Shown one piece after another: positions 3,977-38,744 of a stretch of DNA of 52,997 nucleotides. The stretch is from positions 1-52,997 of IMG/VR virus record IMGVR_UViG_2585427779_000013; one strand, written 5' to 3'. Each line of letters opens with the position of its first letter. Within the stretch, counting starts at the first letter, position 1. The stretch is from a virus (taxonomy: Duplodnaviria; Heunggongvirae; Uroviricota; Caudoviricetes). The notes under the pieces were generated by a model that saw only the letters and a program-made list of their open reading frames with translations, had not been told where the DNA came from and ran no database searches. The position numbers and the translations under genes were made by a program.

Positions 3977-5095
3977 TTACAAAATGGAATATTCAGGGTA
4001 ATAAACAAAGCGCCCGATTTCTCCATGATCCGGGCTGTAAATAATCACCGCTGCCAGCCGCCGCGACCGCCAACCACCATTCGTTGAATAAGCGTCTTTG
4101 CCAGCTAACGTGCCGTGATACTCAACAACGCCTAACGATGACTCAATCAGCCGTTGATGATGCCAGTGCCCGCAATGAGCGTAAACCGCCGCAGACTTGC
4201 CGAAATCCTCACGCCAGTCAGATACGCAAGCAGACAATAAATTTTCCGGCTTTTTGATAGTGTGCCCGTGGTGGTAAGCAAGGAATGTTTTGCCGTACTG
4301 TGTGTGGTGGACGATAGCAGGGGACACATCAACCGTCACGCGCGGTTCATCTTCGTAAAAAGCCGCCAGCGCCGCGCGTAGCCAAATCATGCCTGACTGA
4401 TCGTGATTGCCTGATAACACCTGGATTTCAACATCCTTATGATTTAGTAACATCTTCCCGACCGCACGCCGGACCGACCGGATCGCCACGTAAACCAGTT
4501 TTGCGTAGCGTGAATCGCAATCCAGGACGTGATTGCTTGATGGCGTCACTGGTAACAGGCCGTCAGTATGAAGCACATCACCGCCGAGAAGTAAAACAGC
4601 CTTTTCAGACATTGGCGCAGCGCCTACCGCGTAGTCGAAGAAATCATTTAGCACACGTTCAGCGATCCCGGTGTCGTAGCTTTCGCCGCATTCAGCTTTA
4701 TGAGCAAGCGCCCCGATATGTAGATCGAATACCGGATAAAGGGCCAGGCTTTTTTGGAAATCAATTTCCGGCACTGGCACGGCCTCCGCGCGTGGCATAT
4801 CTTCCGTGAAAGCATCGCAAGCCGCTTGCATTAGCCTTTCCATTTCATCGCGATCACGGGCTGTTTTAATCCAGCGCATAATCACATTGCCATCCTTATC
4901 GACGAGCAAAGACTCACCATTGATGCCAAAACCAGGCGCGCGACGCGTGGATATTAAACCGCGCTTTGCCAATCGTGCGCCCAGCCGTTCGACGTTGCGT
5001 TTTGCCATGCCGTACTTTTCAGCGATCTGTTTATATGTCAGGCCGCTGTTATGTTCAGCGATTAGTTGTTCATCGCTGATCTTTCTTTGTGACAT
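3977..5095 (-). CDS. HTH domain fused to calcineurin-like metallophosphoesterase (372 aa)
   Basis: N-terminal HTH (LTYKQIAEKYGMAKRNVERL); C-terminal motifs GDVLH, GNHD, HHGH, HCGHWHH typical of metallophosphoesterases; occupies the helicase-loader position between initiator and DnaB. Confidence 0.7.
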   Translation of the reverse strand: MSQRKISDEQLIAEHNSGLTYKQIAEKYGMAKRNVERLGARLAKRGLISTRRAPGFGINGESLLVDKDGNVIMRWIKTARDRDEMERLMQAACDAFTEDMPRAEAVPVPEIDFQKSLALYPVFDLHIGALAHKAECGESYDTGIAERVLNDFFDYAVGAAPMSEKAVLLLGGDVLHTDGLLPVTPSSNHVLDCDSRYAKLVYVAIRSVRRAVGKMLLNHKDVEIQVLSGNHDQSGMIWLRAALAAFYEDEPRVTVDVSPAIVHHTQYGKTFLAYHHGHTIKKPENLLSACVSDWREDFGKSAAVYAHCGHWHHQRLIESSLGVVEYHGTLAGKDAYSTNGGWRSRRLAAVIIYSPDHGEIGRFVYYPEYSIL

Positions 5096-5490: not shown

Positions 5491-6543
5491 TCAAAGAACG
5501 CCAGCGCGTGTATCACGTAGCGTTTTTGGTTTAAGCAGGAAATCAAGTGTCGCAGTAAAGCCATTGCCGAAGTAAAAATCTGAAGCCGTGTTTTTGAACG
5601 TTTCGAAGTAGGCGACAAAGCCGTTAATGCTTTTGTCTTTCAGGTAGTCAGTGAACGCATAGATCTTGCGTTCAAGATCCCGATCCAGTTCGGCAGGTGG
5701 TAACAGGCCGTCAAACGTGCTGTTAAATGCTTCCACCACGTCGGCAGCGTTTACAGTAGCTGATAGCTTGCGCCATTGTTCAGCATCAGCCAAATACCCA
5801 TCAAACTTAGTTACCCGGCAAATGTTGATAGGCTTAGGTGTTCCGCCACGGCTACGCCATTGCGTTAAAGCCCACTCAATCACTAATGTGATCTCATCCT
5901 CCGTATACGCTTTACGTGTTTTTGTTTCTGTCAGTAGTTCTACGAATGGCTTAGCGTCACGACATTTGCATCCTGCCTTGTCGTTGTAGAAGGCAAGGCA
6001 ACGCAATGCCGCTTCGTTTACGCCATCCTGATTGACCATTTTTTGTTCATTTTCGACAATACACGAAGTGTATATATCTTTTTCTCTTTCTTTTTCTACT
6101 TCTAATTCTAATTCATGACCCTTTCCTGACCCGGTCATGACCCTATCATGACCTTTTTGTGTTGGATTGATTAACTTTTCTAATTTTAATTGCTCCTTCG
6201 CTGTGTTTATGGCGGCCCTGTAAGCGCTTTTAGAAGTCATTGATTGGTCCAGCCTTTTCAATAACTTTAAACAAGTTATGTGGCCTTGAGAACATTCAAA
6301 CAAACCAATTTCGATGAAGTATTTCATCATTTCTTCTATACGTTTTTCAGTAGATCCGACGTTTCGCGCAATTATTCTTGCGTCATGTCGTAGGTCAAAA
6401 GTTAGATTGTGCTGATCTACGTCATAAGTTATTAGTTCTAGGCAATACCAATAAAGCCCGTACCCTTCCAGGCCATAATCTAATAAAACGTTTTGAAGTT
6501 TTTCATCGCGGTTCGCATCGCTATCATGCTTAAACCACTTCAT
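5491..6543 (-). CDS. phage replication initiation protein (O-like replisome organizer)
   Basis: 350 aa; N-terminus MKWFKHDSDANRDEKL is the hallmark of phage replisome-organizer N-domains by recall; lies immediately upstream of helicase module. Confidence 0.75.
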   Translation of the reverse strand: MKWFKHDSDANRDEKLQNVLLDYGLEGYGLYWYCLELITYDVDQHNLTFDLRHDARIIARNVGSTEKRIEEMMKYFIEIGLFECSQGHITCLKLLKRLDQSMTSKSAYRAAINTAKEQLKLEKLINPTQKGHDRVMTGSGKGHELELEVEKEREKDIYTSCIVENEQKMVNQDGVNEAALRCLAFYNDKAGCKCRDAKPFVELLTETKTRKAYTEDEITLVIEWALTQWRSRGGTPKPINICRVTKFDGYLADAEQWRKLSATVNAADVVEAFNSTFDGLLPPAELDRDLERKIYAFTDYLKDKSINGFVAYFETFKNTASDFYFGNGFTATLDFLLKPKTLRDTRAGVL

Positions 6544-6546
6544 AGA

Positions 6547-6801
6547 TCATTCCTCCGGCAATGCAATGTCATAAATGTCGCCGTATTCGTCAGCGCGTTT
6601 AATGAATCCTTTGCGGATCAATGAATTTAATGCGTCAACAGCAGTATGCAGTGGCAGTTCGCACACTTTTGCGATCTCTTCGCGTGAAGCATGTGCGCGG
6701 CCTTTGTTGTCTGCCTTTTCTGCAAACGCAATTAAGACAAGTTTTTGGATCGGGCTGTTAAGTTTTACGTTCCATGCTTCATTCATCATGTGCATACTCA
6801 T
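6547..6801 (-). CDS. winged-helix/HTH DNA-binding protein in Cro/CII position (84 aa)
   Basis: HTH segment ASREEIAKVCELPLHTAVDALNSLIRKGFI; first gene of minus-strand operon divergent from repressor; GGAGA RBS. Confidence 0.65.
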   Translation of the reverse strand: MSMHMMNEAWNVKLNSPIQKLVLIAFAEKADNKGRAHASREEIAKVCELPLHTAVDALNSLIRKGFIKRADEYGDIYDIALPEE

Positions 6802-7107
6802 CTTGTTTTTCTCCTATGGTTAGAGTGAACGCGCGGGCGGGCATCCCATTAGCATTAGATAGCAGTGACTGACCGCTCAACAGATCCCGCCGTTGCGTGA
6901 TATTTGTTTTTCGCTTCGCAGCGACACCGGATTTTTAAAGAGCTTAAGGTAAGTGCCTTTTTGTGCCTTCCGTTATCTTTTTCCTTGCGTCTTTGCAAGT
7001 ATGGCCTTACCTTGTCTGCAAGTTTACAAAATGGAATTTTAAGATCAAGGCTTAAAATACACGTTTTGTGACTTGCATCAAACTTTTTGAGGTTATAGGG
7101 TAGCGAC
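6802..7107. promoter_or_regulatory. divergent immunity-region control region (candidate PR/PRM-like promoters and operators)
   Basis: 306-bp non-coding gap between divergent repressor and Cro-position gene; repeated half-site TGCAAGT at 6994-7000 and 7017-7023 and inverted as ACTTGCA at 7071-7077; inverted repeat AAGGTAAG/CTTACCTT; motif TTTACAAAATGG at 7023-7034. Confidence 0.5.
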
Positions 7108-7755
7108 ATGAAAACAAAATGGTATGACTTAGCAAAGCAGCTCATGCGGGCGCAGGGCATGAGTCAGGATTCACTCGCAGATCTCATGGGGATAACTAAA
7201 GGCGGCCTGTCACACTGGCTTAACGGTCGCCGCGAGCCAAATCTTGAAGATATTGCGCGGATTATGCGGGCGCTTGGGCGTCGTCAGTTCACTGTTACAC
7301 ATGATGGTATGGTCATTGATGATTCTGTTTCTAATACACTTCAGGCCGCACCGCCGCGTGATTTAGGTAGTTACCCGGTTATTGACTGGAAGGACACAGT
7401 AAACAATATGGATGACACAAGGCGATCAGCATTACCACACGTTACGACTAGCGTTATTTGTTCAGATGATAGTTACTGGCTGGTTGCCAAAGGTGAATCA
7501 ATGAACGCGCCGCAGGGGTTAAGCATCCCGGCGGGGACGATGATACTTGTTGACCCGCACGCGCCAGCTATTGACGGCAAACTGGTTATAGCCCAGCTTG
7601 AGGAAGGGCAGATACCGACGTTTAAACAGTTGATTATTGATGGAGGTCAAAGGCTTTTACGTTCGCTGAATCCGCTGTATCCGCCAATCCCTATGAATCC
7701 AGAATCAAAAATTATAGGCGTGGTGGTTGATGCGAAGATCGTAACCCTGCCATAA
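7108..7755 (+). CDS. CI-like phage repressor (HTH plus LexA/S24 peptidase domain)
   Basis: 215 aa; N-terminal XRE-type HTH; C-terminal S24 autoproteolysis motifs (AKGESM serine, TFKQL lysine). Confidence 0.85.
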   Translation: MKTKWYDLAKQLMRAQGMSQDSLADLMGITKGGLSHWLNGRREPNLEDIARIMRALGRRQFTVTHDGMVIDDSVSNTLQAAPPRDLGSYPVIDWKDTVNNMDDTRRSALPHVTTSVICSDDSYWLVAKGESMNAPQGLSIPAGTMILVDPHAPAIDGKLVIAQLEEGQIPTFKQLIIDGGQRLLRSLNPLYPPIPMNPESKIIGVVVDAKIVTLP

Positions 7756-9226: not shown

Positions 9227-9779
9227 TTACAGATCGGCGGAGGATATTTTAGAGGCTGTTAAGCCTTTATTGGAAGGCATTACGTTAACGCTTAATGATG
9301 AAGTGGTGTTAATTGGTGATCGTTATTACATTAAAGCAACAGCGATATTGAGCGATGGTGAAGATGAAATAACGGCTACTGCTTTCGCCCGCGAGGAAAA
9401 AGAACAAAAAGGCATGTCGTCTGGTCAGTTAACTGGCGCGACTTCTTCTTATGCTCGCAAATATTGTTTAAACGGCTTGTTCTGTATCGACGACGCAAAA
9501 GATCTGGATAGCGACGCTTACGCGAAGCAGACAGGCCAGCAGCCGCGACAACAGAAAAACCCACCAAAACAACAACCGCAGCAGAAGAAAGCGCCGCCAA
9601 ATCCTGATGAAGTATTAGCACGTTTCTGTGATGCAGCAGCGAAAGCGCAGGACGCTAACAAGCTGCGTGAAATATTTGGCAAATGCTGGAAATTACTACC
9701 GGAAGGATCGGAGCATCGAATCAAGGCAAAAGATGTTTATGACATCCGGGTAGCAGAGCTTAACGGGGAGATGGGTTAA
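9138..9779 (+). CDS. erf: Erf-family single-strand annealing recombinase
   Basis: GTG start with GGGG RBS; N-terminal region closely resembles P22 Erf (…YRSAEDILEAVKPLL…IGDRYYIKATA…TGATSSYARKYCLNGLF) by recall. Confidence 0.85.
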   Translation: MKKDLYKKLWLIQQQLKAPKSQRNSYGGYNYRSAEDILEAVKPLLEGITLTLNDEVVLIGDRYYIKATAILSDGEDEITATAFAREEKEQKGMSSGQLTGATSSYARKYCLNGLFCIDDAKDLDSDAYAKQTGQQPRQQKNPPKQQPQQKKAPPNPDEVLARFCDAAAKAQDANKLREIFGKCWKLLPEGSEHRIKAKDVYDIRVAELNGEMG

Positions 9780-10183
9780 TGAGTTTAAATTCAATCACGC
9801 TGGGCGGGAATATCGGTAATGATATGGAGGTTCGCTACACACAAAACGGGAAAGCGATTGGTAGTTTTCCGTTAGCTGTAACGAATGGCTACGGCGATAA
9901 TAAGCGGACAATGTGGGTCACTTGCCTGGTATTTGGTGAGCGTGCGGAAAAATTAGCGCCACATATCCGCAAGGGTGGAAAAATAGTGGTAAGCGGTCGC
10001 CTAGATGTTCGGCAATATGACCGGAACGACGGCACGAAGGGAACTGCGGTAGAAGTGGCGGTCAATGAGTTTGAGTTCATGGCTGTTAACCAGCAAGGCC
10101 AGCAGCAGAAAGCGCCGCCGCAGCAGCAGAATAATAACGGGAATAATGTTCCTCCTGACTTCGATGACGACATCCCGTTTTAA
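9779..10183 (+). CDS. ssb: single-stranded DNA-binding protein
   Basis: 134 aa; OB-fold SSB pattern, Gln/Pro-rich linker and acidic C-terminal tail DFDDDIPF. Confidence 0.9.
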   Translation: MSLNSITLGGNIGNDMEVRYTQNGKAIGSFPLAVTNGYGDNKRTMWVTCLVFGERAEKLAPHIRKGGKIVVSGRLDVRQYDRNDGTKGTAVEVAVNEFEFMAVNQQGQQQKAPPQQQNNNGNNVPPDFDDDIPF

Positions 10184-10198
10184 ATCAATAGGTTAGCG

Positions 10199-10477
10199 AT
10201 GGGTGATTATTTAAAACCGCCACCGCCACCGCGAACAAAAGAGCAAGTTCTAAGAGAAGCCCGTGATCAAATCGATCATGGGCTTTTTTTATGCGGAACG
10301 GCAGCGGAACGGATGGCAAAAAGATTTAGTGACCTGTACGCAAAACAAATATGGCTCGACAACTGGCAGGCAAGTTTTTATCCGCTGCAAAGAAAACCGG
10401 ATATGCACTGGCCTGAATATGTCGATCCACGTATGCGCAAATATCGCGGGCGTATGGGCCAGGTTATTAACGATTAA
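10199..10477 (+). CDS. hypothetical protein (92 aa)
   Basis: ORF in co-directional early cluster. Confidence 0.45.
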   Translation: MGDYLKPPPPPRTKEQVLREARDQIDHGLFLCGTAAERMAKRFSDLYAKQIWLDNWQASFYPLQRKPDMHWPEYVDPRMRKYRGRMGQVIND

Positions 10478-10491
10478 TGAGGTATTAAATC

Positions 10492-10716
10492 ATGATCGAA
10501 GATAAAGAAGTTGACGGAGAAATTCCTGACGGCGCTGATGAGCTTATCACTTTCGGCGGCGGGCTGTACGAGTTCGAAACGTCTGCGGGGTGGCACGATA
10601 AATGGCCTTTCCCTACTCGCCAGGAATTAAGTGACCGCAAAGCATTCGGCGAAGATGCAGAACGGCTGGCTAATAACAAATGGCTTGATAAGTTCATTGC
10701 GGAGGGTGGCAAATGA
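10492..10716 (+). CDS. hypothetical protein (74 aa)
   Basis: ORF in co-directional early cluster. Confidence 0.45.
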   Translation: MIEDKEVDGEIPDGADELITFGGGLYEFETSAGWHDKWPFPTRQELSDRKAFGEDAERLANNKWLDKFIAEGGK

Positions 10717-13634: not shown

Positions 13635-14174
13635 ATGAAAAATGATTACGGCGGCAGCTATACGCCGAAAGAAATAAAAGACTTATGGCAAACGCCAAAA
13701 CCTGTTTTTAGAGGAATGGATCGTGAATTCGAATTCGTCGCGGATGTGGCGGCAAACAAGGCAAACGCATTAATCCCGCGATATATAACCGAAGAAATGG
13801 ACACGCTCCATTATCCGTGGGGAGCGGTGGCAATGCCTGGTGAGTATGTCTGGCTTAATCCACCATATTCTAATCCGGGGCCATTCGTTGATAAAGCGGC
13901 GCTTGAACACAGCCGAAACCATATCGGATGCGTAATGTTATTGCCCGCTGATATTTCTGTTAACTGGTTTATGAACGGCGTGGAGACGGCAAACGAATGC
14001 CGATTAATTACGCGCGGGCGGCTGGCGTTTATCAATGCTGCGACGGGTAAACCAGCAAGCGGAAACAATAAAGGGAGTTTGTTCTTGATCTGGCATCCAC
14101 GATGCAGACATGAATGTATTTTCACGCAGATAACACGTAAAGAGCTATATGCAAGAGGTGCAGAAAATGAGTAA
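13635..14174 (+). CDS. phage DNA N6-adenine methyltransferase (Dam-like)
   Basis: 179 aa; catalytic NPPY motif (VWLNPPYSN) and overall resemblance to small phage Dam family by recall. Confidence 0.7.
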   Translation: MKNDYGGSYTPKEIKDLWQTPKPVFRGMDREFEFVADVAANKANALIPRYITEEMDTLHYPWGAVAMPGEYVWLNPPYSNPGPFVDKAALEHSRNHIGCVMLLPADISVNWFMNGVETANECRLITRGRLAFINAATGKPASGNNKGSLFLIWHPRCRHECIFTQITRKELYARGAENE

Positions 14175-14658
14175 AGCGGCTGAATTGCTAAGACTTGCGG
14201 CTGAAACTATTGAGGCAAGAGGGGAACAAAACGGATACGATCGAAAAGAAGAAAAATCAGCGCCAAAAATAGCCACTATTTACAACGCTAAGAAGGGGAC
14301 AAATCTAACCCCGCTTGATGTATGGGATCTACTAATTTGTCTCAAGGAGGGGCGATTAGAGGCCATTTTAAGCAATGGTAGCGACCCGCTCGACACTCTT
14401 ATAGACCTTATTGCTTATAACGCGCTAAAAGCGGAGCAAATATTAACGGAGCGGGAGGAAGAACAAAGAAAGAAACAGGCTGTTTTTGATATGCCGTTAA
14501 ATTGCGGCTGTAAGAATGTCACTATATCCGGCGGCACGATCGCCGCCAGCGGGATAACGCTAAATGGTAGCCTTTCAAATAGGATTGATGTGAAGTTCGA
14601 TAACGAATCACTACTACGCGCGGCGGGGTATCATAAAAATGGAAAGGGTGACAATTGA
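14167..14658 (+). CDS. hypothetical protein (163 aa)
   Basis: ATG 14167 with AGAGGTG RBS; overlaps Dam gene end by 8 nt. Confidence 0.45.
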   Translation: MSKAAELLRLAAETIEARGEQNGYDRKEEKSAPKIATIYNAKKGTNLTPLDVWDLLICLKEGRLEAILSNGSDPLDTLIDLIAYNALKAEQILTEREEEQRKKQAVFDMPLNCGCKNVTISGGTIAASGITLNGSLSNRIDVKFDNESLLRAAGYHKNGKGDN

Positions 14659-22760: not shown

Positions 22761-22995
22761 GCTATACAAGATCAGGTGTAAAGGCGAATACCCTGGCTTT
22801 ACGATTGGTTGCGAATACCTGGGCCACATTGGGTACGGCCCTTTCGGTGAGTTGGGGATGAGCACGCTGGACGATGACGGCGACAGCCGGACGCTTGATC
22901 TTGATTCTGATGATTTCGAATACATCCCGCCAGTCACTTACCGTGACGTCGATGATTTCCTGGCTGAACAAGAAGACGATGAAGAGGATGATTAA
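22738..22995 (+). CDS. hypothetical protein with acidic C-terminus (85 aa)
   Basis: ORF; C-terminal EQEDDEEDD. Confidence 0.4.
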   Translation: MTLSASSKLYKIRCKGEYPGFTIGCEYLGHIGYGPFGELGMSTLDDDGDSRTLDLDSDDFEYIPPVTYRDVDDFLAEQEDDEEDD

Positions 22996-22997
22996 CT

Positions 22998-23138
22998 ATG
23001 GATGACGAATACGTTAATAATTTTATTGTTATGTTTCTTAGTGAAAACTGGCGCATGTTTGAACATTATTGTTTTGAGCGCGGGGAAAATGCTGAAGAAA
23101 TATATCAATATTTAGGCGGGGAGAAAGAGGATGATTGA
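22998..23138 (+). CDS. small protein (46 aa)
   Basis: ATG ORF not in track; overlaps next start. Confidence 0.3.
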   Translation: MDDEYVNNFIVMFLSENWRMFEHYCFERGENAEEIYQYLGGEKEDD

Positions 23139-23328
23139 ATGCCTTATTATTGCGGTTATTCTCCTTTACCTGGCTGGCGTAATTTTAATGGGCGCTTTTC
23201 AGAAAGCTGTTGATAGTGACGGCGTCATTTGGTTCGAGCTAGTCTTCTGGCCTTTCATTACGATATACGCTTTCACTGATGCTATGCGCATTAACATCAT
23301 GCGGGAAATTAAGGAGCGCAAAAAATGA
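23131..23328 (+). CDS. small membrane protein (65 aa)
   Basis: Two predicted TM helices (MIECLIIAVILLYLAGVILMGAF…). Confidence 0.45.
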   Translation: MIECLIIAVILLYLAGVILMGAFQKAVDSDGVIWFELVFWPFITIYAFTDAMRINIMREIKERKK

Positions 23329-23804: not shown

Positions 23805-24296
23805 ATGATTAGCCAATCGCTGAAAAATAAGATTATTGCGGCGGCGGCTGGTGGGGCGATCGCTATTGCGGGGATGATGATAAAAGATCTTGAAGGCGTT
23901 GAGTATAAGCCGTACAGAGATGTCATCGGTGTTTACACGATATGTTATGGACACGTCGGAAAAGACATCATGCTTGGGAAGACTTACACGCAATCAGAAT
24001 GCGATGCTTTGTTAAATAAAGATCTACACAAGACCGCAAAAGCGATTGACCCATATATCAAGGTCGAAATATCAGATTTTACCCGCGCTGCACTTTATTC
24101 CTTCGCCTATAACGTAGGCACTACCAACTTCAAAACATCAACCTTATTAAAGCTACTCAATGACGGCAAGAAATCAGAAGCGTGCGCACAGCTTAAACGC
24201 TGGATTTATGCTGGCGGTAAGCAGTGGCAAGGGTTAATTAACCGCCGTGATGTTGAATATGCCGTTTGCGAATGGGGTGAGACATGGACAAGGTGA
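23805..24296 (+). CDS. SAR endolysin (lysozyme, T4/P1 Lyz type)
   Basis: N-terminal Gly/Ala-rich SAR helix, then [34 protein letters not shown]… closely resembling phage 21 R / P1 Lyz by recall; track ORF starts upstream at 23724. Confidence 0.85.
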
Positions 24297-24754
24297 AGAC
24301 GTTAATTATCGCCGTTGTTGTTTGCATTATTGCCGGGCTGACCGCCGTAACGTGTTATTACCAGAGTGAGGCGGCAAGGTTACAGGAAGAAGTCACGGTG
24401 ACGCAAGGTGCACTAAAGACAGCAAGTAACACTATTCAGCAGATGAAGGATCGGAACGCCGAACTGTCAAAACTTGATAAGAGGTATCACGATGAGATTA
24501 AAGCTATCAGATCTGACATTGCCGATCTGCGTGCTGGCATTGATAGCGGTGCTATCCGGTTGCACGTCAACGCCGAGCCAGTGCGATTGCTCGACAATAC
24601 CGGAACCGCCAGCCGCATTGATGGAGCCACCTGTAGACTCACTCCAGACGCTGAATCGGCTTATCTATCCCTCAGAGAACAACTAAAAGAGAAAGATGCG
24701 AAGATCGCCGGACTTCAGAGCTATATCAAAACGCAGTGCTTACGCAAAAAATAA
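24284..24754 (+). CDS. Rz-like i-spanin
   Basis: 156 aa; N-terminal TM helix, coiled coil, C-terminal pattern similar to lambda Rz. Confidence 0.8.
24492..24686 (+). CDS. Rz1-like o-spanin lipoprotein embedded in Rz (+1 frame)
   Basis: [24 protein letters not shown] lipobox then Pro-rich region, like lambda Rz1. Confidence 0.75.
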   Translation: MRLKLSDLTLPICVLALIAVLSGCTSTPSQCDCSTIPEPPAALMEPPVDSLQTLNRLIYPSENN

Positions 24755-24986: not shown

Positions 24987-25559
24987 ATGTTAACACTAGA
25001 CGAACTAGACAGGATTTTATTCTGTGATGTTGAAAATGGTTTGCTTTACTGGAAATCACGCCCGCGTAGTGACTTTAGCAATGATTTTACTTGCAGGATG
25101 TTTAATTTTAAGGCCGGGAAGATAGCTGGCGGTATTAATGGCGACGGATACGTCGTTATCCATCATAACGGTAAACCTATATTTGCTCATGATGCCGTAT
25201 GGCTTTTTGCTGGTAATGAATTGATAGATGGGCTTGTTATAGATCACATAAACCATATAAGGAGCGATAACAGGCTAAAAAATCTTAGAATGGTTAGTGA
25301 GTTAACTAATTCAAGAAATCAAAAACTTCATAGCAATAACATTACGGGATATAGCGGGGTAAGAAAAACCAAATCAGGAAAATGGTCCGCGCACATACAT
25401 GTAAACGGTAAGGAAAGGCAAATAGGGACATTTTTAACGATTGATGAGGCTGTTAAAGCCAGAAAGAACGCTGAAGCAATTAACGGTTATCATGATAATC
25501 ACGGGCGAGACATCTATGTTGATCTGCCATATATAGACCCGTGGAATAGAATAAATTAA
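24987..25559 (+). CDS. HNH homing endonuclease (HNH plus AP2-like DNA-binding domain)
   Basis: 190 aa; DGLVIDHINHIRSDNRLKNLRMVSELTNSRN and GYSGVRK…W.A motifs; GGTGGAGA RBS. Confidence 0.75.
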   Translation: MLTLDELDRILFCDVENGLLYWKSRPRSDFSNDFTCRMFNFKAGKIAGGINGDGYVVIHHNGKPIFAHDAVWLFAGNELIDGLVIDHINHIRSDNRLKNLRMVSELTNSRNQKLHSNNITGYSGVRKTKSGKWSAHIHVNGKERQIGTFLTIDEAVKARKNAEAINGYHDNHGRDIYVDLPYIDPWNRIN

Positions 25560-25574
25560 TAAAGGAGTCCTGCG

Positions 25575-26117
25575 ATGGCTAAGGGTAAAGGCATTAAGTT
25601 GCCTCAATTCAAAGTCCCGCTCTTTGAGCATACAACAGTATTCTTCTGCCCTACTCGCGATATGTTTTACGAGTTTTGCGAAAAGGCAGGGATCCCAATC
25701 GAACCTGATTTTGAACTGGCAGGAGGTTTAACACTTACTTGCACTGGCGAGAAAGGCGGTAACTTCTACGTGATCGCAGTATTCGATAATGAGCTGGGTA
25801 CGCTGGTACATGAATGCGCTCACACCACATTCCACGTTTTAAGTGATGTAGGCGTCGTAGCGACCACTGATCCAACTCATCCGGCGAACGAGACTTACGC
25901 TTACATGGTAGGCCGCATCTTTGATGCATTTTTCCCTATCCTGGCCGAATCAAACGAAGCACAGGTTGCAGCAATGCAGGCTGCTGAAGTAGTAGAGCAG
26001 GCATTAGAACAGGCAGAACAGCCGAAGAAAGAAGAAAAACCCGCTAAGAAAGGCAAACGTAAGCCGAAATCAAAAGAAGCGTATGTACCGCGCGTAATGA
26101 GCTTTAAACGAGGCTGA
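25575..26117 (+). CDS. hypothetical protein with HExxH motif and Lys-rich tail (180 aa)
   Basis: LVHECAHTTFH motif suggests a zinc-peptidase-like fold; C-terminal KKEEKPAKKGKRKPK. Confidence 0.5.
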   Translation: MAKGKGIKLPQFKVPLFEHTTVFFCPTRDMFYEFCEKAGIPIEPDFELAGGLTLTCTGEKGGNFYVIAVFDNELGTLVHECAHTTFHVLSDVGVVATTDPTHPANETYAYMVGRIFDAFFPILAESNEAQVAAMQAAEVVEQALEQAEQPKKEEKPAKKGKRKPKSKEAYVPRVMSFKRG

Positions 26118-26119
26118 TT

Positions 26120-26209
26120 ATGATTGCGTCAATATTAACGTTTATGGGTGGCGTGGCATTCGGATTCATTATTTGCCTGTTTATGGTGATTATGTCTATG
26201 CGAGGCTGA
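26120..26209 (+). CDS. mini-ORF 1 of tandem hydrophobic peptide array (29 aa)
   Basis: MIASILTFMGGVAFGFIICLFMVIMSMRG; GAGG RBS 7 nt upstream. Confidence 0.4.
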   Translation: MIASILTFMGGVAFGFIICLFMVIMSMRG

Positions 26210-26211
26210 TT

Positions 26212-26307
26212 ATGGACGCTTACATCATCTCCGGATTAATCGGTGTTTCTGTATTTATGGTGGGATTTGTTATTGCCGTGCTGATAACCGTAAAGAGTAA
26301 ATTATGA
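26212..26307 (+). CDS. mini-ORF 2 (31 aa)
   Basis: MDAYIISGLIGVSVFMVGFVIAVLITVKSKL; same GAGGCTGATTATG context as ORF 1. Confidence 0.4.
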   Translation: MDAYIISGLIGVSVFMVGFVIAVLITVKSKL

Positions 26308-26378
26308 ACTCCTACGATTTCATCTGGTTATTGGTGCTCATCGTAGGTATTGGCGTGAACATTTGCAGGCTATGGTGA
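26304..26378 (+). CDS. mini-ORF 3 (24 aa)
   Basis: MNSYDFIWLLVLIVGIGVNICRLW; ATGA overlap with ORF 2. Confidence 0.4.
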   Translation: MNSYDFIWLLVLIVGIGVNICRLW

Positions 26379-26382
26379 AAAT

Positions 26383-26457
26383 ATGATTGACCCGCTAATT
26401 ATCCTTTCTGCCTGCGTCGCTGTATGGCTGGCGATCATGATATTCATTGAAAGCTGA
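26383..26457 (+). CDS. mini-ORF 4 (24 aa)
   Basis: MIDPLIILSACVAVWLAIMIFIES; GGTGA upstream. Confidence 0.35.
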   Translation: MIDPLIILSACVAVWLAIMIFIES

Positions 26458-26468
26458 AGGTATTCACC

Positions 26469-26543
26469 ATGAATATTTACGATCTCATCTGGTGGTCGTT
26501 GGTCGCCGTCATTATCTATTTCTGGTGGAAGAATGTTGTATAG
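26469..26543 (+). CDS. mini-ORF 5 (24 aa)
   Basis: MNIYDLIWWSLVAVIIYFWWKNVV; GAAGG RBS. Confidence 0.4.
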   Translation: MNIYDLIWWSLVAVIIYFWWKNVV

Positions 26544-26551
26544 GTGAAAGC

Positions 26552-26632
26552 ATGAACGCATACGATATGCTATTGCTGGTGGCTGTTATTACAGTCATTG
26601 CCGTTGATGTGTATCGGGAGCTTAAAAAATGA
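26552..26632 (+). CDS. mini-ORF 6 (26 aa)
   Basis: MNAYDMLLLVAVITVIAVDVYRELKK; AGGTGA RBS. Confidence 0.4.
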   Translation: MNAYDMLLLVAVITVIAVDVYRELKK

Positions 26633-26697
26633 AATGGCTTGATTTCTTTTTCCTGATTGTTGCGATTGTTCTTACCATGACAGCACTGACTCAATAG
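26629..26697 (+). CDS. mini-ORF 7 (22 aa)
   Basis: MKWLDFFFLIVAIVLTMTALTQ; ATGA overlap with ORF 6. Confidence 0.35.
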   Translation: MKWLDFFFLIVAIVLTMTALTQ

Positions 26698-26705
26698 GTG
26701 AGCTA

Positions 26706-26780
26706 ATGGATGTTATCGAAGCCGTATTATTCGTATGTATCGCCGCGTTAATTATTGTTGGGGTGATTATCAATGTCTGA
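26706..26780 (+). CDS. mini-ORF 8 (24 aa)
   Basis: MDVIEAVLFVCIAALIIVGVIINV; AGGTGA RBS. Confidence 0.4.
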   Translation: MDVIEAVLFVCIAALIIVGVIINV

Positions 26781-26841
26781 TAGTGATTTCTTAATTATGG
26801 CTATAAGCACGCTGTTGGTTGTTATTGTTTTCTTCTGGTGA
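26773..26841 (+). CDS. mini-ORF 9 (22 aa)
   Basis: MSDSDFLIMAISTLLVVIVFFW; GGGTGA RBS; overlaps ORF 8 end by 8 nt. Confidence 0.3.
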   Translation: MSDSDFLIMAISTLLVVIVFFW

Positions 26842-26849
26842 GAAATATT

Positions 26850-26993
26850 ATGTTTGAATTTATCGATCTACTGATGTTCTTGCTTTGCGCTGGTGTGCTT
26901 ATTATCGCGTTAATGCTATGCGCATACGTGATTGTAATGATTGGCGCGCTCATTTACAGAGAAGCAAAACAGAGATTTAAGGGTAAACAATGA
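26850..26993 (+). CDS. mini-ORF 10 (47 aa)
   Basis: MFEFIDLLMFLLCAGVLIIALMLCAYVIVMIGALIYREAKQRFKGKQ; GGTGAG RBS. Confidence 0.4.
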   Translation: MFEFIDLLMFLLCAGVLIIALMLCAYVIVMIGALIYREAKQRFKGKQ

Positions 26994-27076
26994 AAGAATT
27001 ATTCGACTGGTTGGAAGTATTAACGTACTGCGCGACGATGGTCGTGTGTTTGTATATTCTGTGTAAATTATATTGA
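26990..27076 (+). CDS. mini-ORF 11 (28 aa)
   Basis: MKELFDWLEVLTYCATMVVCLYILCKLY; ATGA overlap with ORF 10; ends 12 nt before terS start. Confidence 0.35.
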   Translation: MKELFDWLEVLTYCATMVVCLYILCKLY

Positions 27077-27087
27077 GAGGTGACATT

Positions 27088-27573
27088 ATGGCCCGCACGA
27101 AAAAGGCAAAGGCTGAAGACAAAAAGCCAGCAGCCAAAAAGACGGGCCGTCCGCATGGCTATTCAGAAGAAAAGGCATTGGAGATCTGCGAGCTTGTGTC
27201 GGACGGCGAAAGCATTAACAAAATTTCGAAGATGCCTGGTATGCCTGCACGTTCAACAATCCTTAAGTGGTTCCGTGATGTGCCGGAATTTTCGGACATG
27301 TACATACGCGCGAAGGAGATCGGCTTTGAGGTGTTAGCTGATGAAATCATCGATCTCGCTGATGCGCCAGAGAACATCAAAAAGGAAGAGTTAAACAGAC
27401 ACCATTTGATGATTGAAACGCGCAAATGGCTATTAGCAAAACTGCAACCGCGTAAATACGGTGAACGCGTCACGCAGGAAATCGTAGGCAACAAGGAAGA
27501 AGCGCCCGTCCAGGTTGAAGTCACGAAAGAAGAGATCGCCCGCATCGTCCAGGAAGTAGAAGACGAGGTGTGA
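27088..27573 (+). CDS. terminase small subunit
   Basis: 161 aa starting MARTKKAK; basic N-terminus and HTH-like region; directly precedes large terminase with 4-nt overlap. Confidence 0.7.
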   Translation: MARTKKAKAEDKKPAAKKTGRPHGYSEEKALEICELVSDGESINKISKMPGMPARSTILKWFRDVPEFSDMYIRAKEIGFEVLADEIIDLADAPENIKKEELNRHHLMIETRKWLLAKLQPRKYGERVTQEIVGNKEEAPVQVEVTKEEIARIVQEVEDEV

Positions 27574-29054
27574 TTATGTTGTCCATCAAAGAAAGGGTTA
27601 TTCAGTCAAAATGTGAAAACGATGGCCTGTTCTTCAACCGTTATTTCTACAAGCAAGCAAACGGAACGAAGATGTTAATCTCAGGCCATCACATAGCCAT
27701 ACGTGATGCTCTACAACGCGTTATTAATGGTGAGATTACCCGGCTCATCATTAACATTCCCCCAGGGTACGGTAAAACCATGATTGCGACCATTAACATG
27801 ATGGCCCGCTCCCTCGCAATAAATCCCCGCACACGCTTCCTTCACGTTTCATACTCCGACAACCTGGCATTACTTAATTCCTCGACAGTCAGAAGCATGG
27901 TTTGTTCGCAGGAATACCAAAAGCTATGGCCCATGAAGATCCGCAACGATGCCAACAGTAAATCGATGTGGTGGACGGAACAGGGCGGCGGGATATATGC
28001 CGCATCGTCACACGGTCAGATTACGGGTTTTCGTGCTGGTTACATGGAGCCAGGTTTTAACGGCGCGATGATTATCGACGACCCATTAAAGCCCGCTGAC
28101 GCTTACTCTGATGTGATGCGGGATAAGGTAAAGAACAACTACAACGATACGCTTGCTTCACGTCTGGCAGTGCAAACAACGCCTGTTATCGTCATTATGC
28201 AGCGTATCCACTACGATGATTTGTCCGGCTACCTGTTACGCGGTGGCAGTGGTGAGAAGTGGTATCACCTTAACCTGCCAGTGAAGATCGACAATAGCAT
28301 CGACTATTGGGATCTGTACCCGGAAAACGAATTCGCTATTCCTATTGCTCATAACCTGCCGGACGGCTGGCTATGGCCTAAAAAGCACAATGACAGCCAT
28401 GAAGCCGGACTGAAAGCGCACCGTAGGTCATTCGAGGCACAGTACATGCAGCGCCCGCGTAAATTCGACGAGGAAGGCGCGTTATGGACTGAAGCCATGA
28501 TAACCGCCGCGCACCGGATGCAGATAACGCAGGACAAGATCCGCACGGTGATAGCCATCGACCCGGCGACAACATCATCTGATGAGTCAGACGAAACAGG
28601 GATTGTAGCCTGTTCAGCCTATGGTGGCGGCAAGTACGCACAGTATTCTGTAGACGGTGACTACTCAGGCCGCATGTCTCCTAACGATTGGGCGCAAGCA
28701 TCAATTAACGCTTACAACATCCATGAAGCTGACGCGATAGTTATCGAAACCAACCAGGGCGGGGAAATGGCAGAGGCCACGCTACGTAACGCCGGATTCA
28801 AAGGCCGCATTGTTAAGGTGCACGCAAGCAAGGGTAAATTCGCCCGCGCCGAGCCAATATCGGCACTGTATGCACAAGGAAGGGTGGCCCACACAGGCAG
28901 CCTGTACACGCTGGAAAATCAAATGATGGAATACGTGCCAGCTACCGCTAAAAAATCCCCGGACCGCCTCGACGCAATGGTGTGGGGTATCACTGAATTA
29001 AGCCAACCACAGGCTATGGGCCTCATGTTACCGAAGCGCCTGCGCGGATTTTAA
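27570..29054 (+). CDS. terminase large subunit (ATPase/nuclease)
   Basis: 494 aa; Walker A PPGYGKT, Walker B MIIDDP, C-terminal nuclease-like acidic motifs. Confidence 0.85.
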   Translation: MIMLSIKERVIQSKCENDGLFFNRYFYKQANGTKMLISGHHIAIRDALQRVINGEITRLIINIPPGYGKTMIATINMMARSLAINPRTRFLHVSYSDNLALLNSSTVRSMVCSQEYQKLWPMKIRNDANSKSMWWTEQGGGIYAASSHGQITGFRAGYMEPGFNGAMIIDDPLKPADAYSDVMRDKVKNNYNDTLASRLAVQTTPVIVIMQRIHYDDLSGYLLRGGSGEKWYHLNLPVKIDNSIDYWDLYPENEFAIPIAHNLPDGWLWPKKHNDSHEAGLKAHRRSFEAQYMQRPRKFDEEGALWTEAMITAAHRMQITQDKIRTVIAIDPATTSSDESDETGIVACSAYGGGKYAQYSVDGDYSGRMSPNDWAQASINAYNIHEADAIVIETNQGGEMAEATLRNAGFKGRIVKVHASKGKFARAEPISALYAQGRVAHTGSLYTLENQMMEYVPATAKKSPDRLDAMVWGITELSQPQAMGLMLPKRLRGF

Positions 29055-29132
29055 AAACCATCCCACAATCCCCCACAAGTTTTTCTATTTTTCGCGTAGC
29101 AACGCGTAAACATGTATTCAGGAGTAAACATT

Positions 29133-30506
29133 ATGCCATCCAATTTAGAATTGGCGGTTAATGCTGCCTTGTCACAACGCCAGGCGGCCTTTGCCCGCTA
29201 TGCAGCCGCTAACCCATTCACTATGGGGATCGATGCTAAACGTAACGCCGCGTGGAGTGAATACGGATTCAAAGAAGAGCTTACCTATACTGATCTATAT
29301 AAGCTGTATCGTCGCGGTGGTATTGCTCACGGGGCCATTGAAAAAATTATCACCACATGCTGGCGCGATAGCCCGGTGCTGATAGAAGGCACTGAAGACG
29401 AGAAAGCGGAAACGGAAACACCCTGGGAAAGAGAAATAAAGAAACAATTCGATAACCGATTCTGGCGTGTTATTGCTGAATGCGATCGCCGTCGCCTGGT
29501 TGGTCGTTATGCCGGACTATTGATTCACGTCAAAGATAACCAGCCGTGGGATCGTCCAGTAACAAAAGGGGTAGGCATCGCTAAATTCACTCCTGTATGG
29601 GCTGGCGCACTAACACCAAAGGACTTCGATGAAAACCCGGATAGCGATAACTACGGTCTGCCGACATGGTGGGAATACAAAGAACGCATCAACAGCAAGA
29701 CCATCGCAAGGAAAATACATCCAGACCGGATATTTATCTTTGGTGACTATTCTGATGATGCTATCGCTTTCCTTGAGCCATCCTATAACGCTTTCGTTTC
29801 GCTGGAGAAAGTGGAAGGTGGTAGCGGTGAGTCATTCCTGAAGAACGCCGCACGCCAGCTTGCTATCTCATTCGACAAAGAAATTGACTTCCGCTCACTG
29901 GCTGCAACGTATGACTGCGACGTCACAGAGTTACGCGAAAAATTCAATGAAGCCGCAGCGGAAATGAATAAAGGTAATGATGTGATGATGGCGTTACAGG
30001 GCGCAACAGTAAGCCCGCTGGTAACTGCCGTATCTGACCCGTCCGCAACCTATGATGTAAACCTGCAAACCGCCGCCGCTGGTATCGACATTCCAACGCG
30101 TATCCTAGTTGGGAATCAACAGGGTGAACGAGCATCAACTGAAGATCTCCGCTATTTCAATAACCGATGCATGACCCGCCGCCAGGAAATCGGAGGCGAG
30201 CTTGAAGAACTATTCCGCAAACTGGCAGATCTACGCCTTACCAGTGAGCCACGCGACATATCAGTGCTATGGGATGACCTTAACGCTATGACCAAAGCCG
30301 AACTACTGGAAGCGGCACACAAGATGGCGCAAATCAATCAGGCATGTCTTGCTACTGGTGAGCAGGTATTCAGCGGTGATGAGATCCGCGAAGCTGCCGG
30401 ATATGAAGGGCCAACGCAGGAAGTAGAAGTGGAAGACGAGGAAAACGATGATGAAGGTGAAGAAAATAATCAGGCGAATACCTCCAGCCGCGATAATGCC
30501 ATCTAA
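29133..30506 (+). CDS. putative portal protein
   Basis: 457 aa following terL, acidic C-terminus; AGGAG RBS before ATG 29133; assignment by size and gene order. Confidence 0.6.
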   Translation: MPSNLELAVNAALSQRQAAFARYAAANPFTMGIDAKRNAAWSEYGFKEELTYTDLYKLYRRGGIAHGAIEKIITTCWRDSPVLIEGTEDEKAETETPWEREIKKQFDNRFWRVIAECDRRRLVGRYAGLLIHVKDNQPWDRPVTKGVGIAKFTPVWAGALTPKDFDENPDSDNYGLPTWWEYKERINSKTIARKIHPDRIFIFGDYSDDAIAFLEPSYNAFVSLEKVEGGSGESFLKNAARQLAISFDKEIDFRSLAATYDCDVTELREKFNEAAAEMNKGNDVMMALQGATVSPLVTAVSDPSATYDVNLQTAAAGIDIPTRILVGNQQGERASTEDLRYFNNRCMTRRQEIGGELEELFRKLADLRLTSEPRDISVLWDDLNAMTKAELLEAAHKMAQINQACLATGEQVFSGDEIREAAGYEGPTQEVEVEDEENDDEGEENNQANTSSRDNAI

Positions 30507-31405: not shown

Positions 31406-31888
31406 ATGATTAACTGGCATGATTATTTCACGTATGAATCAGGTCATATTTATTGGAAAATATCACCAACTAACGGCGTACATATTGGCGATCATGCAGG
31501 CAATGACAGCGGGTTAGGATATTTGCGTGTCCGTGTCAACTATAGGTTATATCTTGTTAGTAGAATCATATGGGAAATGCACAACGGACCGATACCTGAA
31601 GGTTACGAGATAGATCATATTGACCATAACACGCTAAATAACGATATAACGAATCTAAGGATGGTAAGTCATTACGAAAATACACTAAATGCGCCAATGA
31701 GAAAAGATAATAAAAGCGGTTACATCGGTGTTATTTGGCATAAGGCGTCACGTAAATGGATGGCGTATGTACAAGTGAATAAGAAGCGCAAACATTTAGG
31801 TTTATTTGACAGCATAGATGAGGCTGTAGCCGCACGCCGACAAGCTGAAAAAGAGAACAATTATCATCCAAATCACTGGAGTGTTTAA
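31406..31888 (+). CDS. HNH homing endonuclease (paralog of 24987-25559)
   Basis: EIDHIDHNTLNNDITNLRMVSHYENT and GYIGV…W.A motifs align with the other HNH gene; track ORF begins at TTG 31358, start set to ATG 31406. Confidence 0.7.
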   Translation: MINWHDYFTYESGHIYWKISPTNGVHIGDHAGNDSGLGYLRVRVNYRLYLVSRIIWEMHNGPIPEGYEIDHIDHNTLNNDITNLRMVSHYENTLNAPMRKDNKSGYIGVIWHKASRKWMAYVQVNKKRKHLGLFDSIDEAVAARRQAEKENNYHPNHWSV

Positions 31889-31889
31889 G

Positions 31890-33155
31890 ATGTCAGATTT
31901 AATTCAAGTAAACGCAAAAATTTCATGTAATAAAATACGCAGGGAGATATACAACGGTAGGGAACACATCGTAGTCCCTTCGTATACACTCCCTTTCGGT
32001 ATCGTTATGAATCGTGAATATTACCCGGAAGCTGAAATTATCGCTAATTACCAGTCACTGGAGGGTACACTTGCCCCGCTGGGCCATCCTACCGTTGACG
32101 GTAAATTTGTTTCCGCATTTAGCCCGGAAGGATTAAACACGGGTTTTTGTGGAGCGTGGAACAGAAACGTTGAATTACGCGGCAATCGTGTTTATGTGGA
32201 AAAGTGGGTGGATATTGAAACAGCCAGCCACTCAGAACAAGGCCGGGAATTGTTGAGCAGGCTGGAAGCACTGGAGAAAGGAGAAAGCAAGGATCCCATC
32301 TGGTCGTCCGTCGCTGTATATCGTCAACGTATGCCAGCTACTGAAGAGATGAAAGCCCAGGGCGCTGACAGCGTTGTTAAAATTATGTCGATCGACCATG
32401 ACGCTATTTTACTGCATGAGCCGCCAGCCGCCTCACCTGAACAGGGTGTAGGGTTGATGGTTAATACTGACCAGGCGAAACCGTTAATGGCGGTGGCAAT
32501 GAAAGAAAACAGCTACCGCACGCTTGAGAAACAATTAACCGACGCGGCGCGGGAATTATTCCCTGATGCCGATTATGTGTACGTGGTGGACTTCACTGAT
32601 AAAGAGGTGACGATCGCCACTAATACTGAAAGTGCTCAAGTTTGCGCATATGAAAAACAGGCTGATAAAATTATTCTCAATAATGGCGAGCTTGCAACCA
32701 ACGAGGAAAGTAAATCCTGGTTTGCTCAGTTCGCTGAACACCTTTCTAATCTTTTCTCCCTGAATGAAAAAATTAAGGCCAATAAATCGGAGGACGATCC
32801 CATGCCTTTGACCAAAGAAGAACGCGCCGAACTGGTAAAAGAAATTAACGAAGGCTTAGCCGCCAATATCGCTAATGCAGTAGCAGAGGCATTAAAACCA
32901 GTACAGGCAAGCGTGGAAGAATTACAGACCAACCAGAAAGCAATTAAAGAAGAAATTGCAGCAAATGCAAATAAAGAAGTAGCAGAAAAACGCGCCGCAG
33001 TAGCAAAAGTACACGGCGAAATTGTTGCTAACGCATTAAATGGTGAAGCGTTAGAAGCAATGTTTAAATCCCTGGGTAAAGCAGCGCCGATGGCAACCAA
33101 CGCAGCAAGCGAAGGTAAAAAAGGCGAAGTACCAGACTTTAACACTTATTTCTAA
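31890..33155 (+). CDS. putative scaffolding protein / prohead-assembly protein
   Basis: 421 aa; Ala/Glu/Lys-rich coiled-coil C-terminal half; GGAG RBS; lies between head morphogenesis and capsid genes. Confidence 0.55.
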   Translation: MSDLIQVNAKISCNKIRREIYNGREHIVVPSYTLPFGIVMNREYYPEAEIIANYQSLEGTLAPLGHPTVDGKFVSAFSPEGLNTGFCGAWNRNVELRGNRVYVEKWVDIETASHSEQGRELLSRLEALEKGESKDPIWSSVAVYRQRMPATEEMKAQGADSVVKIMSIDHDAILLHEPPAASPEQGVGLMVNTDQAKPLMAVAMKENSYRTLEKQLTDAARELFPDADYVYVVDFTDKEVTIATNTESAQVCAYEKQADKIILNNGELATNEESKSWFAQFAEHLSNLFSLNEKIKANKSEDDPMPLTKEERAELVKEINEGLAANIANAVAEALKPVQASVEELQTNQKAIKEEIAANANKEVAEKRAAVAKVHGEIVANALNGEALEAMFKSLGKAAPMATNAASEGKKGEVPDFNTYF

Positions 33156-37754: not shown

Positions 37755-38075
37755 TTATGCTATTTTTTCGTAAAGCACATTCATCTGGGTGCGAATCACT
37801 GTTAATATATTGATTGCTGCGTTCTTATCAATGCGTTTATTCGCTACTATTTTTGTTTTCCCATCAATAACAACCAGATCTGCGTGCAATACATGGTTGA
37901 AGTTAATAATGTAATAATACTGTTTATCGCCAACATGTTGAACATATGCACCATTTAGATTTCCTTTATACCCACAATCACGCTCTGCGACACCGAAGTC
38001 AAATTCGCGGTTCATCTTGCGATTATATGCTACTTGTTTATGTTCCCATTTTCTCATCCATTCATCGCGCTTCAT
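37755..38075 (-). CDS. hypothetical moron protein (106 aa)
   Basis: Reverse-strand ORF inside tail cluster, coupled to upstream lipoprotein gene. Confidence 0.5.
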   Translation of the reverse strand: MKRDEWMRKWEHKQVAYNRKMNREFDFGVAERDCGYKGNLNGAYVQHVGDKQYYYIINFNHVLHADLVVIDGKTKIVANKRIDKNAAINILTVIRTQMNVLYEKIA

Positions 38076-38084
38076 GTTTCACCC

Positions 38085-38744
38085 TTAATTCCAGTTGCAA
38101 GCGTTTTTTACTTTGTCGATGTGGTTATAAAGACCATCAATGTTAAACACTGCTTTCTCAATGTCGCCAGCTTCCGGCACTACTTCAATGATGAATTGTT
38201 TTTCGTTAACCATTTTTTTAATCATTGGGATGGCTTTTTTGCCGTCCCATAATCCAAGAGCTTTATAATTAGTTGACCGTCCCCACTCAGTAGCTACAGC
38301 TTTGTGAACGCCGATCCGGTAGTTAATATAAGTAGTGTCCCCGGCGTCAGTTACATGGTGTGACCATGCTACGAACATTTTTGTTTTATTACCCTGGCAA
38401 GCGATTGTTAATACCGGTTTATTCTTATCCTGTGCCTTCAGTGTCGGGAAAGCATCAAGACTTCCGCTGAATTGTTCTGCTTTCACAAAAAGGAATACGT
38501 TTTTTGCGTCCTGCATATCATCTTTTCTTTCAACTACAAGCCACTGTTTACCAGCATTTTCTTTTTCTAACTGTGCATCGTATGCGGCTTGTTTTGCTTG
38601 TTGTTCTGCAAGCCATTTAGCATTTTTCTCTGCTAATGCTTGTTGTTCTTGATTGGTCACTATAGGCGCTTTTTCATTATCCTCATTGCAACCAACCAGA
38701 CCCAATACCGCCGCAATCATTGCCACTTTTGCTAACTGTTTCAT
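38085..38744 (-). CDS. moron lipoprotein (219 aa)
   Basis: Signal peptide with lipobox MKQLAKVAMIAAVLGLVGC; coiled-coil rich N-terminal region. Confidence 0.6.
   Translation of the reverse strand: MKQLAKVAMIAAVLGLVGCNEDNEKAPIVTNQEQQALAEKNAKWLAEQQAKQAAYDAQLEKENAGKQWLVVERKDDMQDAKNVFLFVKAEQFSGSLDAFPTLKAQDKNKPVLTIACQGNKTKMFVAWSHHVTDAGDTTYINYRIGVHKAVATEWGRSTNYKALGLWDGKKAIPMIKKMVNEKQFIIEVVPEAGDIEKAVFNIDGLYNHIDKVKNACNWN

Follow-up and report, generated by a model that had tools for sequence, protein, structure and literature searches.

Our analyses of a 52,997-nucleotide stretch of viral DNA (IMG/VR virus record IMGVR_UViG_2585427779_000013, positions 1–52,997; the whole stretch is referred to here as the window) have identified one of its genes as encoding a predicted zincin-like metallopeptidase (MPTase) of phages that falls within an uncharacterised group of phage proteins, PHROG 1365. 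The window belongs to a mEp021-like (mEpimmI) temperate coliphage, and the gene in question, referred to here as ORF180, is an open reading frame (ORF) at positions 25575–26117 (+ strand) that runs from an ATG start to a TGA stop at 26115–26117 and specifies a product of 180 amino acids (aa). Its ortholog in mEp021, gp49 (AXN54168.1), is annotated as a "hypothetical protein", and about 120 near-identical E. coli prophage clusters carry the gene. A first-pass annotation of the window had described a HExxH-motif protein at this location with the sequence LVHECAHTTFH and a lysine-rich, highly basic C-terminus; the boundaries of the ORF and the motif (residues 77–87) were exactly as described, and the final 32 residues contain 13 K/R (10 K and 3 R) vs. 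3 D/E, which makes this C-terminus the most basic among the plausible genes of the window. The motif alone proves little, because one such motif in a 53-kb window is unremarkable (the chance expectation for HExxH is ~0.005 per 180 aa).

The evidence that carries the identification comes from the conservation of this protein in a large family. When 1.84 billion representatives were searched exhaustively with HMMER, 149 relatives of ORF180 were recovered, most of which are stand-alone proteins of 110–140 aa that match its residues ~1–130. The family consists of single-domain proteins of 110–190 aa, the majority of them ~120 aa long and lacking a C-terminal tail, and residues 1–124 form a core common to all 149 representatives. 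In an alignment of 108 of these relatives, which share 25–35% identity with ORF180, the sole invariant columns are H79, E80, H83, and E106, and conservation reaches 90% or more at G51, G93, and Y110. The invariance of these four residues at such low identity argues that the HExxH motif is not a chance match, and its combination with a Glu on the next helix (E106, located 23 residues past H83) constitutes the gluzincin signature. ORF180 is also a genuine gene under strong purifying selection: for codons 1–132 of the core, comparison with mEp021 and MagusPhagus gives a synonymous divergence (dS) of 0.54–0.57 and a nonsynonymous divergence (dN) of 0.007–0.018 (dN/dS 0.011–0.033), and the dN/dS against more distant relatives is 0.07–0.10 (overall dS range 0.5–2.8).

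The protein matches the PHROG 1365 profile with an E value of 6.4e-31 (residues 3–131 vs. profile positions 5–124 of 127), and its distant relatives also map to this entry, which is annotated as "unknown function". PHROG 1365 takes in two proteins from well-known phages, viz. HkcC of P22/HK620 and Orf129 of phage L/ST64T, which are 37–45% identical to ORF180 and share its catalytic residues. Their function is likewise annotated as unknown (PMC2629481), so that they offer no clue to that of ORF180, and our literature search found no paper on phrog_1365 and none characterising hkcC or orf129. Both are short forms (121–129 aa) without the stalk and tail of ORF180; Orf129 occupies the same slot as ORF180, between Rz and the terminase small subunit (TerS), whereas HkcC, unlike ORF180, is found in the "ant moron". 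In the P22 RefSeq record (L005, NC_002371.2) the hkcC-type member at 13885–14193 is unannotated and only the sieA promoter is marked there. The genome of ST160 (L025) contains two mini-zincin paralogs (22883–23272 and 37897–38262), viz. Orf129, which precedes dec and gene 3, and the hkcC-type Orf64 within the ant moron, and genomes with two paralogs occur among some P22-like phages.

The structural prediction for ORF180 is consistent with its sequence signature. An AlphaFold2 model produced with the family alignment (predicted local distance difference test, pLDDT, 91.3; predicted template modelling score, pTM, 0.78) contains strands at residues 11–13, 21–25, 51–57, and 63–69 and helices at residues 28–38, 44–48, 74–91 (carrying HExxH), and 103–148 (with E106 at its start, running on as a stalk), followed by a tail that is modelled as coil (pLDDT ~70). 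The minimal zincin core has the same order of elements (PMC5512222), and the topology predicted by the model appears zincin-like. A Foldseek search of the model against the PDB gave no significant match; the weak sequence and fold matches of the family to peptidases are all to zincins. It is very likely, in our judgement, that ORF180 is a zincin-type enzyme.

Searches of Pfam, NCBIfam, and PDB sequences with ORF180 only gave nothing usable, no Pfam family was above threshold for ORF180 or for the 108 + 10 members scanned, and no precomputed Pfam domain is present on 351 homologs. ORF180 has low structural scores to the gluzincin peptidases (thermolysin-like clan MA(E), M3 oligopeptidase A/neurolysin, minimal zincin 3e11), does not belong with them at the sequence level, and is far smaller than the M3 peptidases. 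The family profile, when compared with PDB sequences, gave a weak match to residues 2189–2234 of the virion RNA polymerase (vRNAP) of phage N4. The hhalign value was 72% against this single N4 region and 92.5% (E 4.7e-7, 88 columns) against a 13-sequence alignment of Schitoviridae vRNAPs that was built using 12 tblastn loci, and the aligned columns span the strand-helix-strand-strand sheet region as well as the HExxH helix. The region corresponds to the HExxH domain known as CTD-C1 (residues ~2124–2375) within the C-terminal domain (CTD) of N4 vRNAP (PMC5512222, PMC13434306). In both families a downstream Glu is invariant and forms part of an N-E-x-x-x-aromatic motif, the ALNEFMAW of the N4 family resembling the NE(T/A)(Y/F)(C/A)Y of the ORF180 family, and both are encoded among late/virion-module genes. 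The N4 domain differs in having a ~55-residue insert between the two catalytic helices, which is absent from ORF180; after excision of this insert hhalign pairs both Glu residues, with a score no higher than the control. It is also part of a giant multidomain protein, whereas ORF180 is a stand-alone domain of 120 aa with a stalk and a basic tail, and the ORF180 family has no Pfam-model match for an N4/PolyVal-type domain. Solo versions of the domains of polyvalent proteins have been described (PMC5512222; Iyer et al. 2017), and the description that best fits the family is that of a stand-alone relative, without the insert, of the zincin MPTase domain present in polyvalent phage proteins. The source of one homolog (P0118) calls it a "PolyVal Metallopeptidase superfamily domain", and another homolog carries the name "SprT-like"; both names are automated guesses, and they disagree.

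The CTD of N4 vRNAP is required for encapsidation and no proteolysis has been observed for it (PMC5512222, PMC13434306, PMC13492108). With an encapsidation/regulatory role the only one documented for the nearest described relative, ORF180 could, as may be the case for CTD-C1, be a non-catalytic zincin-like module with a structural or targeting role, in which the HExxH/E residues are kept for metal-dependent folding only. However, the general base E80 is invariant besides the three ligands and Y110 is near-invariant, a pattern that is typical of active enzymes, and we regard a non-catalytic role as improbable.

The first-pass annotation had also compared the active site of ORF180 to those of zinc peptidases or of ImmA/SprT-like proteins. 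The former comparison is upheld by the invariant HExxH/Glu, the zincin-like predicted topology, and the N4 homology, and the ImmA and SprT-like labels are not retained. ImmA/IrrE proteins have HExxH + Glu and encoding by mobile elements in common with ORF180, which could be envisaged as an anti-repressor protease of this type (M78) controlling lysogeny. However, no member of the family matches Pfam Peptidase_M78, ORF180 is about half the usual size of ImmA, and the gene is located in the late operon between lysis and packaging genes (its neighbours being Rz, HNH, mini-ORFs, and TerS) with no XRE/ImmR-type repressor adjoining it; we have rejected this label, and an anti-repressor function for ORF180 is extremely unlikely. 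A role as the prohead protease was similarly rejected, for P22-like phages require no such protease and in them the gene is an accessory one. No canonical prohead protease is recognised in the head module of the window, and a 424 aa phrog_760 protein of unknown function (31881–33155) is present where a scaffold or prohead protease is expected.

Among Pfam families, SprT-like (PF10263) is the one with the most frequent partial matches to members of the family (16 of 108). These extend over the ~18-residue HExxH helix alone and score 11–14 bits (vs. a cut-off of 25.6 bits), and ORF180 itself has no such match. The SprT-like/Spartan/Wss1 proteins have a small zincin core like that of ORF180, to which ORF180 adds a basic, potentially DNA-binding extension, and a DNA-tethered protease of this kind, the tail of which binds DNA while the zincin clears concatemer-bound proteins ahead of the packaging motor, would suit both the charge of the tail (net +10, vs. 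−7 for the core; its KPAKKGKRKPK composition is H1-like) and the adjoining terminase genes. However, most family members are without a tail, the SprT-like matches are at the level of the motif, hhalign of the family with E. coli SprT (YggI) gives 5%, the third ligand is Glu instead of His, and there is no Zn ribbon. The SprT-like label has therefore been rejected, and we consider the DNA-tethered model an unlikely one.

The C-terminal parts of the long-form proteins have evolved unevenly. The stalk/linker is variable between relatives, with a 14-aa indel in mEp021, and the KKGKRKPKxKEAxVPRVMSFKRG end is nearly unchanged even in L007 (62% identical overall); the proteins of other long-form clades likewise terminate in basic patches (e.g. 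KPSKPSKPKGGKRDRS and GKGGRRGRR). In L008, the zincin has lost its conserved basic C-terminal peptide, the place of which is taken by an inserted HNH gene. The N-terminus of TerS (MARTKKAKAEDKKPAAKKTGRP; window 27088–27160) is also Lys-rich, with a net charge of +7 over the first 30 residues of the listed ORF, and resembles the ORF180 tail in composition.

It had further been proposed in the first-pass annotation that ORF180 and the hydrophobic mini-ORF array that directly follows it form one functional unit, with the peptidase processing or regulating the array peptides. The arrangement itself is as described: the two are co-directional, the ATG of the first mini-ORF at 26120 is located 2 nt past the ORF180 stop, the junction GAGGCTGATTATG (ribosome-binding site (RBS), stop, start) is found both after ORF180 and after mini-ORF 1, and the pairing is kept in all 5 of the mEp021-like loci examined. 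However, the family gene is kept without the array in ST64T/L, HK620/P22, RSB3, and six metagenomic/prophage lineages, and in at least 8 lineages outside the mEp021-like phages the number of hydrophobic mini-ORFs downstream of it is 0 (among them the ST64T, L009, L012, L014, and L016 loci). Conservation independent of the peptide array, which the annotation had itself named as evidence against the proposal, is thus what we have found, and it largely refutes a functional unit. In the mEp021-like loci the array varies from 5 to 11 copies, the family gene and the array are separated by an HNH gene in L008, and rV5-like myoviruses carry mini-ORF 1 without an ORF180 homolog beside it. The array peptides consist of one transmembrane segment each and lack any leader-like part, and ORF180 itself is devoid of signal or membrane segments. 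Processing or regulation of these peptides by ORF180 is therefore very unlikely, and we hold with considerable confidence that ORF180 is not functionally tied to the array, which, separated from ORF180, needs its own explanation.

The junction motif AAACG[AG]GG[CGT]TGATTATG, which comprises the RBS, the stop, and the next start, is present in the window at 26104–26122 and 26196–26214, in L001 at ~4574–4591, and in L008 at ~6003–6020. It is found at the 3′ end of the gene just ahead of the array, be this ORF180 or, in L008, the HNH gene, recurs between mini-ORFs 1 and 2, and may represent a recombination or translational-coupling cassette boundary. Mini-ORF 1 encodes 29 aa (MIASILTFMGGVAFGFIICLFMVIMSMRG), and the segment 26115–26214 of the window, which contains it together with the RBS junction and a 3′ GCGAGGCTGA, is ~95% identical to the unannotated gap between ORF137 and ORF138 in an rV5-like Vequintavirus (L003, DQ832317.1 96249–96349). 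The movement of a single mini-ORF between unrelated phages argues that the mini-ORFs are real, mobile genes.

The genomic partner that is conserved with the family is the block of TerS, terminase large subunit (TerL), and portal genes, and not the mini-ORF array. This is seen from the neighbourhood of the gene in ten lineages, which were treated as independent and were not sampled at random. The gene is found between Rz and the mini-ORFs, with TerS following, in the mEp021-like lineage (the window, L001, L002, L007, and L008); in ST64T/L/ST160 the order is Rz, orf118, Orf129, Dec (orf134), and gp3 TerS; and in a Pectobacterium prophage (L019) the gene follows the lysis genes and is succeeded by a Terminase_2 TerS, TerL, portal, and MuF. 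It precedes a 146 aa protein, TerL, and a P22-type portal in L009–L011; four small genes, a 218 aa protein, TerL, and an SPP1-type portal in L012–L014; and proteins of 167 aa and 483 aa and an SU10-type portal in the locus of P0259. In L016 the order is TerS, TerL, the gene, portal, and an ART-PolyVal protein (6478–7557), in L020 the gene is immediately ahead of a P22-type portal, and in the T7-like RSB3 it follows maturase A, maturase B, lysozyme, and ORF48. The tenth lineage, comprising hkcC of HK620 and the unannotated P22 ORF, has it in the "ant moron", with gene 16 on one side and gene 9 on the other (PMC2629481). Hence, in 9 of the 10 lineages the gene is within ~2.5 kb of TerS, TerL, or portal, though the terminase and portal families differ. 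As only about one-fifth of the positions in a 40–55 kb genome would qualify under random placement, this appears to be far beyond chance, a rough estimate in view of the non-random sampling of the lineages. From the distribution across lineages, both the array and the HNH genes have the look of insertions, particular to single lineages, into a more ancient junction between zincin and terminase.

In the window, no promoter-like or terminator-like signals above the shuffled expectation are found from Rz to TerS, from which we infer that ORF180 is most likely part of a long late transcript. In the mechanism that we propose, H79, H83, and E106 would hold Zn2+, and E80 would activate water, with a possible contribution of Y110 to stabilisation of the transition state; the predicted edge strand 63–69 ahead of the HExxH helix would be the docking site for a substrate peptide. 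The acidic stalk (residues 125–148) would act as a spacer, and the basic end (residues 149–180) would most likely serve as a tether that anchors the enzyme on DNA or on an acidic partner. ORF180 would then cleave a protein at a late stage of infection, and would do so either in connection with head assembly/packaging or as a low-copy cargo/effector that is delivered with the DNA. The predicted activity, viz. that of a soluble late zinc endopeptidase linked to packaging, head assembly, or delivery, is one to which we give nearly even weight, and the biological role is the weakest step of the proposal. The extension of this role to PHROG 1365 as a whole is more tentative: these proteins may possibly constitute an unrecognised, widespread terminase/portal-associated protease of tailed phages that acts in packaging/head processing or, as injected cargo, against a host target. 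In the injected form it may cleave a host defence or host-takeover target. In the mEp021 clade, the tether made up of the stalk and the basic peptide would bring the enzyme to DNA or into the interior of the capsid.

The explanation that we rank second is that ORF180 is an accessory effector of counter-defence or host takeover. It would be a cytoplasmic protease by which a protein of the host or of a competing phage is destroyed in the late phase of infection, and its proximity to the terminase would merely reflect a hotspot for accessory genes at the lysis/packaging boundary. The HkcC-type members of P22 and HK620 are neighbours of sieA in the "ant moron", which is variable (PMC2629481), two paralogs are present in ST160, a Tad2-like (anti-Thoeris) gene is directly upstream of the zincin gene in L014 (3729–4004), the ART-PolyVal protein is nearby in L016, just 22 of 5426 complete E. 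coli genomes have a counterpart of ORF180, and mEp021 gp49 is not labelled among the 16 virion proteins identified by mass spectrometry, all of which accord with an accessory function. However, the positions of the gene between TerL and portal in L016 and directly before portal in L020 are not the usual module boundary, all 7 mEp-like phages carry the gene, and ORF180 has no match to PADLOC models and no known target. A literature search for phage zincin anti-defence proteins gave nothing relevant. We consider the accessory explanation doubtful, and a protease linked to the head, packaging, or delivery is preferred.

The features of the window that surround and make up ORF180 are listed in Table 1. 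The region is ~87% identical at the DNA level to MagusPhagus, mEp554, mEp010, mEp044, mEp021, mEp515, and mEp013. The stop of the HNH gene and the start of ORF180 are separated by 15 nt, and past the portal the gene order continues with MuF, the 424 aa phrog_760 protein, a decoration protein, and the major capsid protein. HNH(-AP2) genes are found at varying sites in the related loci, viz. between Rz and ORF180 in the window, between lysozyme and Rz in L007 (3752–4273), and between ORF175 and the array in L008 (5497–6000); L007 also has a MuF gene with an intein (9491–10534).

Table 1. Positions of ORF180 features and of neighbouring genes in the window.
Feature	Position	Strand	Remarks
Lysozyme	23805–24296		
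Rz	24284–24754		
HNH-AP2 homing endonuclease	24987–25559	+	Between Rz and ORF180; absent from that site in mEp021
Shine-Dalgarno sequence AAGGAG	25562–25567	+	7 nt upstream of the ORF180 ATG; strong RBS, read from the sequence
Minimal zincin-like catalytic core, residues 1–124	25575–25946	+	Predicted from AlphaFold2 model, family-shared region, and dN/dS
HECAH, residues 79–83	25809–25823	+	In helix 74–91; predicted Zn ligands H79 and H83, predicted general base E80
NETYAY, residues 105–110	25887–25904	+	In the following helix; E106 is the predicted third Zn ligand; includes Y110
Acidic helical stalk, residues 125–148	25947–26018	+	6 D/E, 0 K/R; length varies
Lys/Arg-rich C-terminal peptide, residues 149–180	26019–26114	+	From composition and conservation among relatives
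11 hydrophobic mini-ORFs	26120–27076	+	22–47 aa; grand average of hydropathy (GRAVY) 0.95–2.56; array extends to TerS
TerS, Sf6 type	27088–27573	+	
TerL	27570–29054		
Portal	29112–30506		

If the identification is true, a protease domain of ~120 residues with a complete catalytic set would be among the smallest zincins known. The family is unstudied both in textbook phages (P22 hkcC, phage L orf129) and in the gut-prevalent mEpimmI coliphages, and as mEp021 and P22 are genetically tractable, the prediction is directly testable. The recurrence of the gene beside terminase and portal genes of unrelated families points to an unexplored proteolytic step in the packaging, head assembly, or early infection of these phages.
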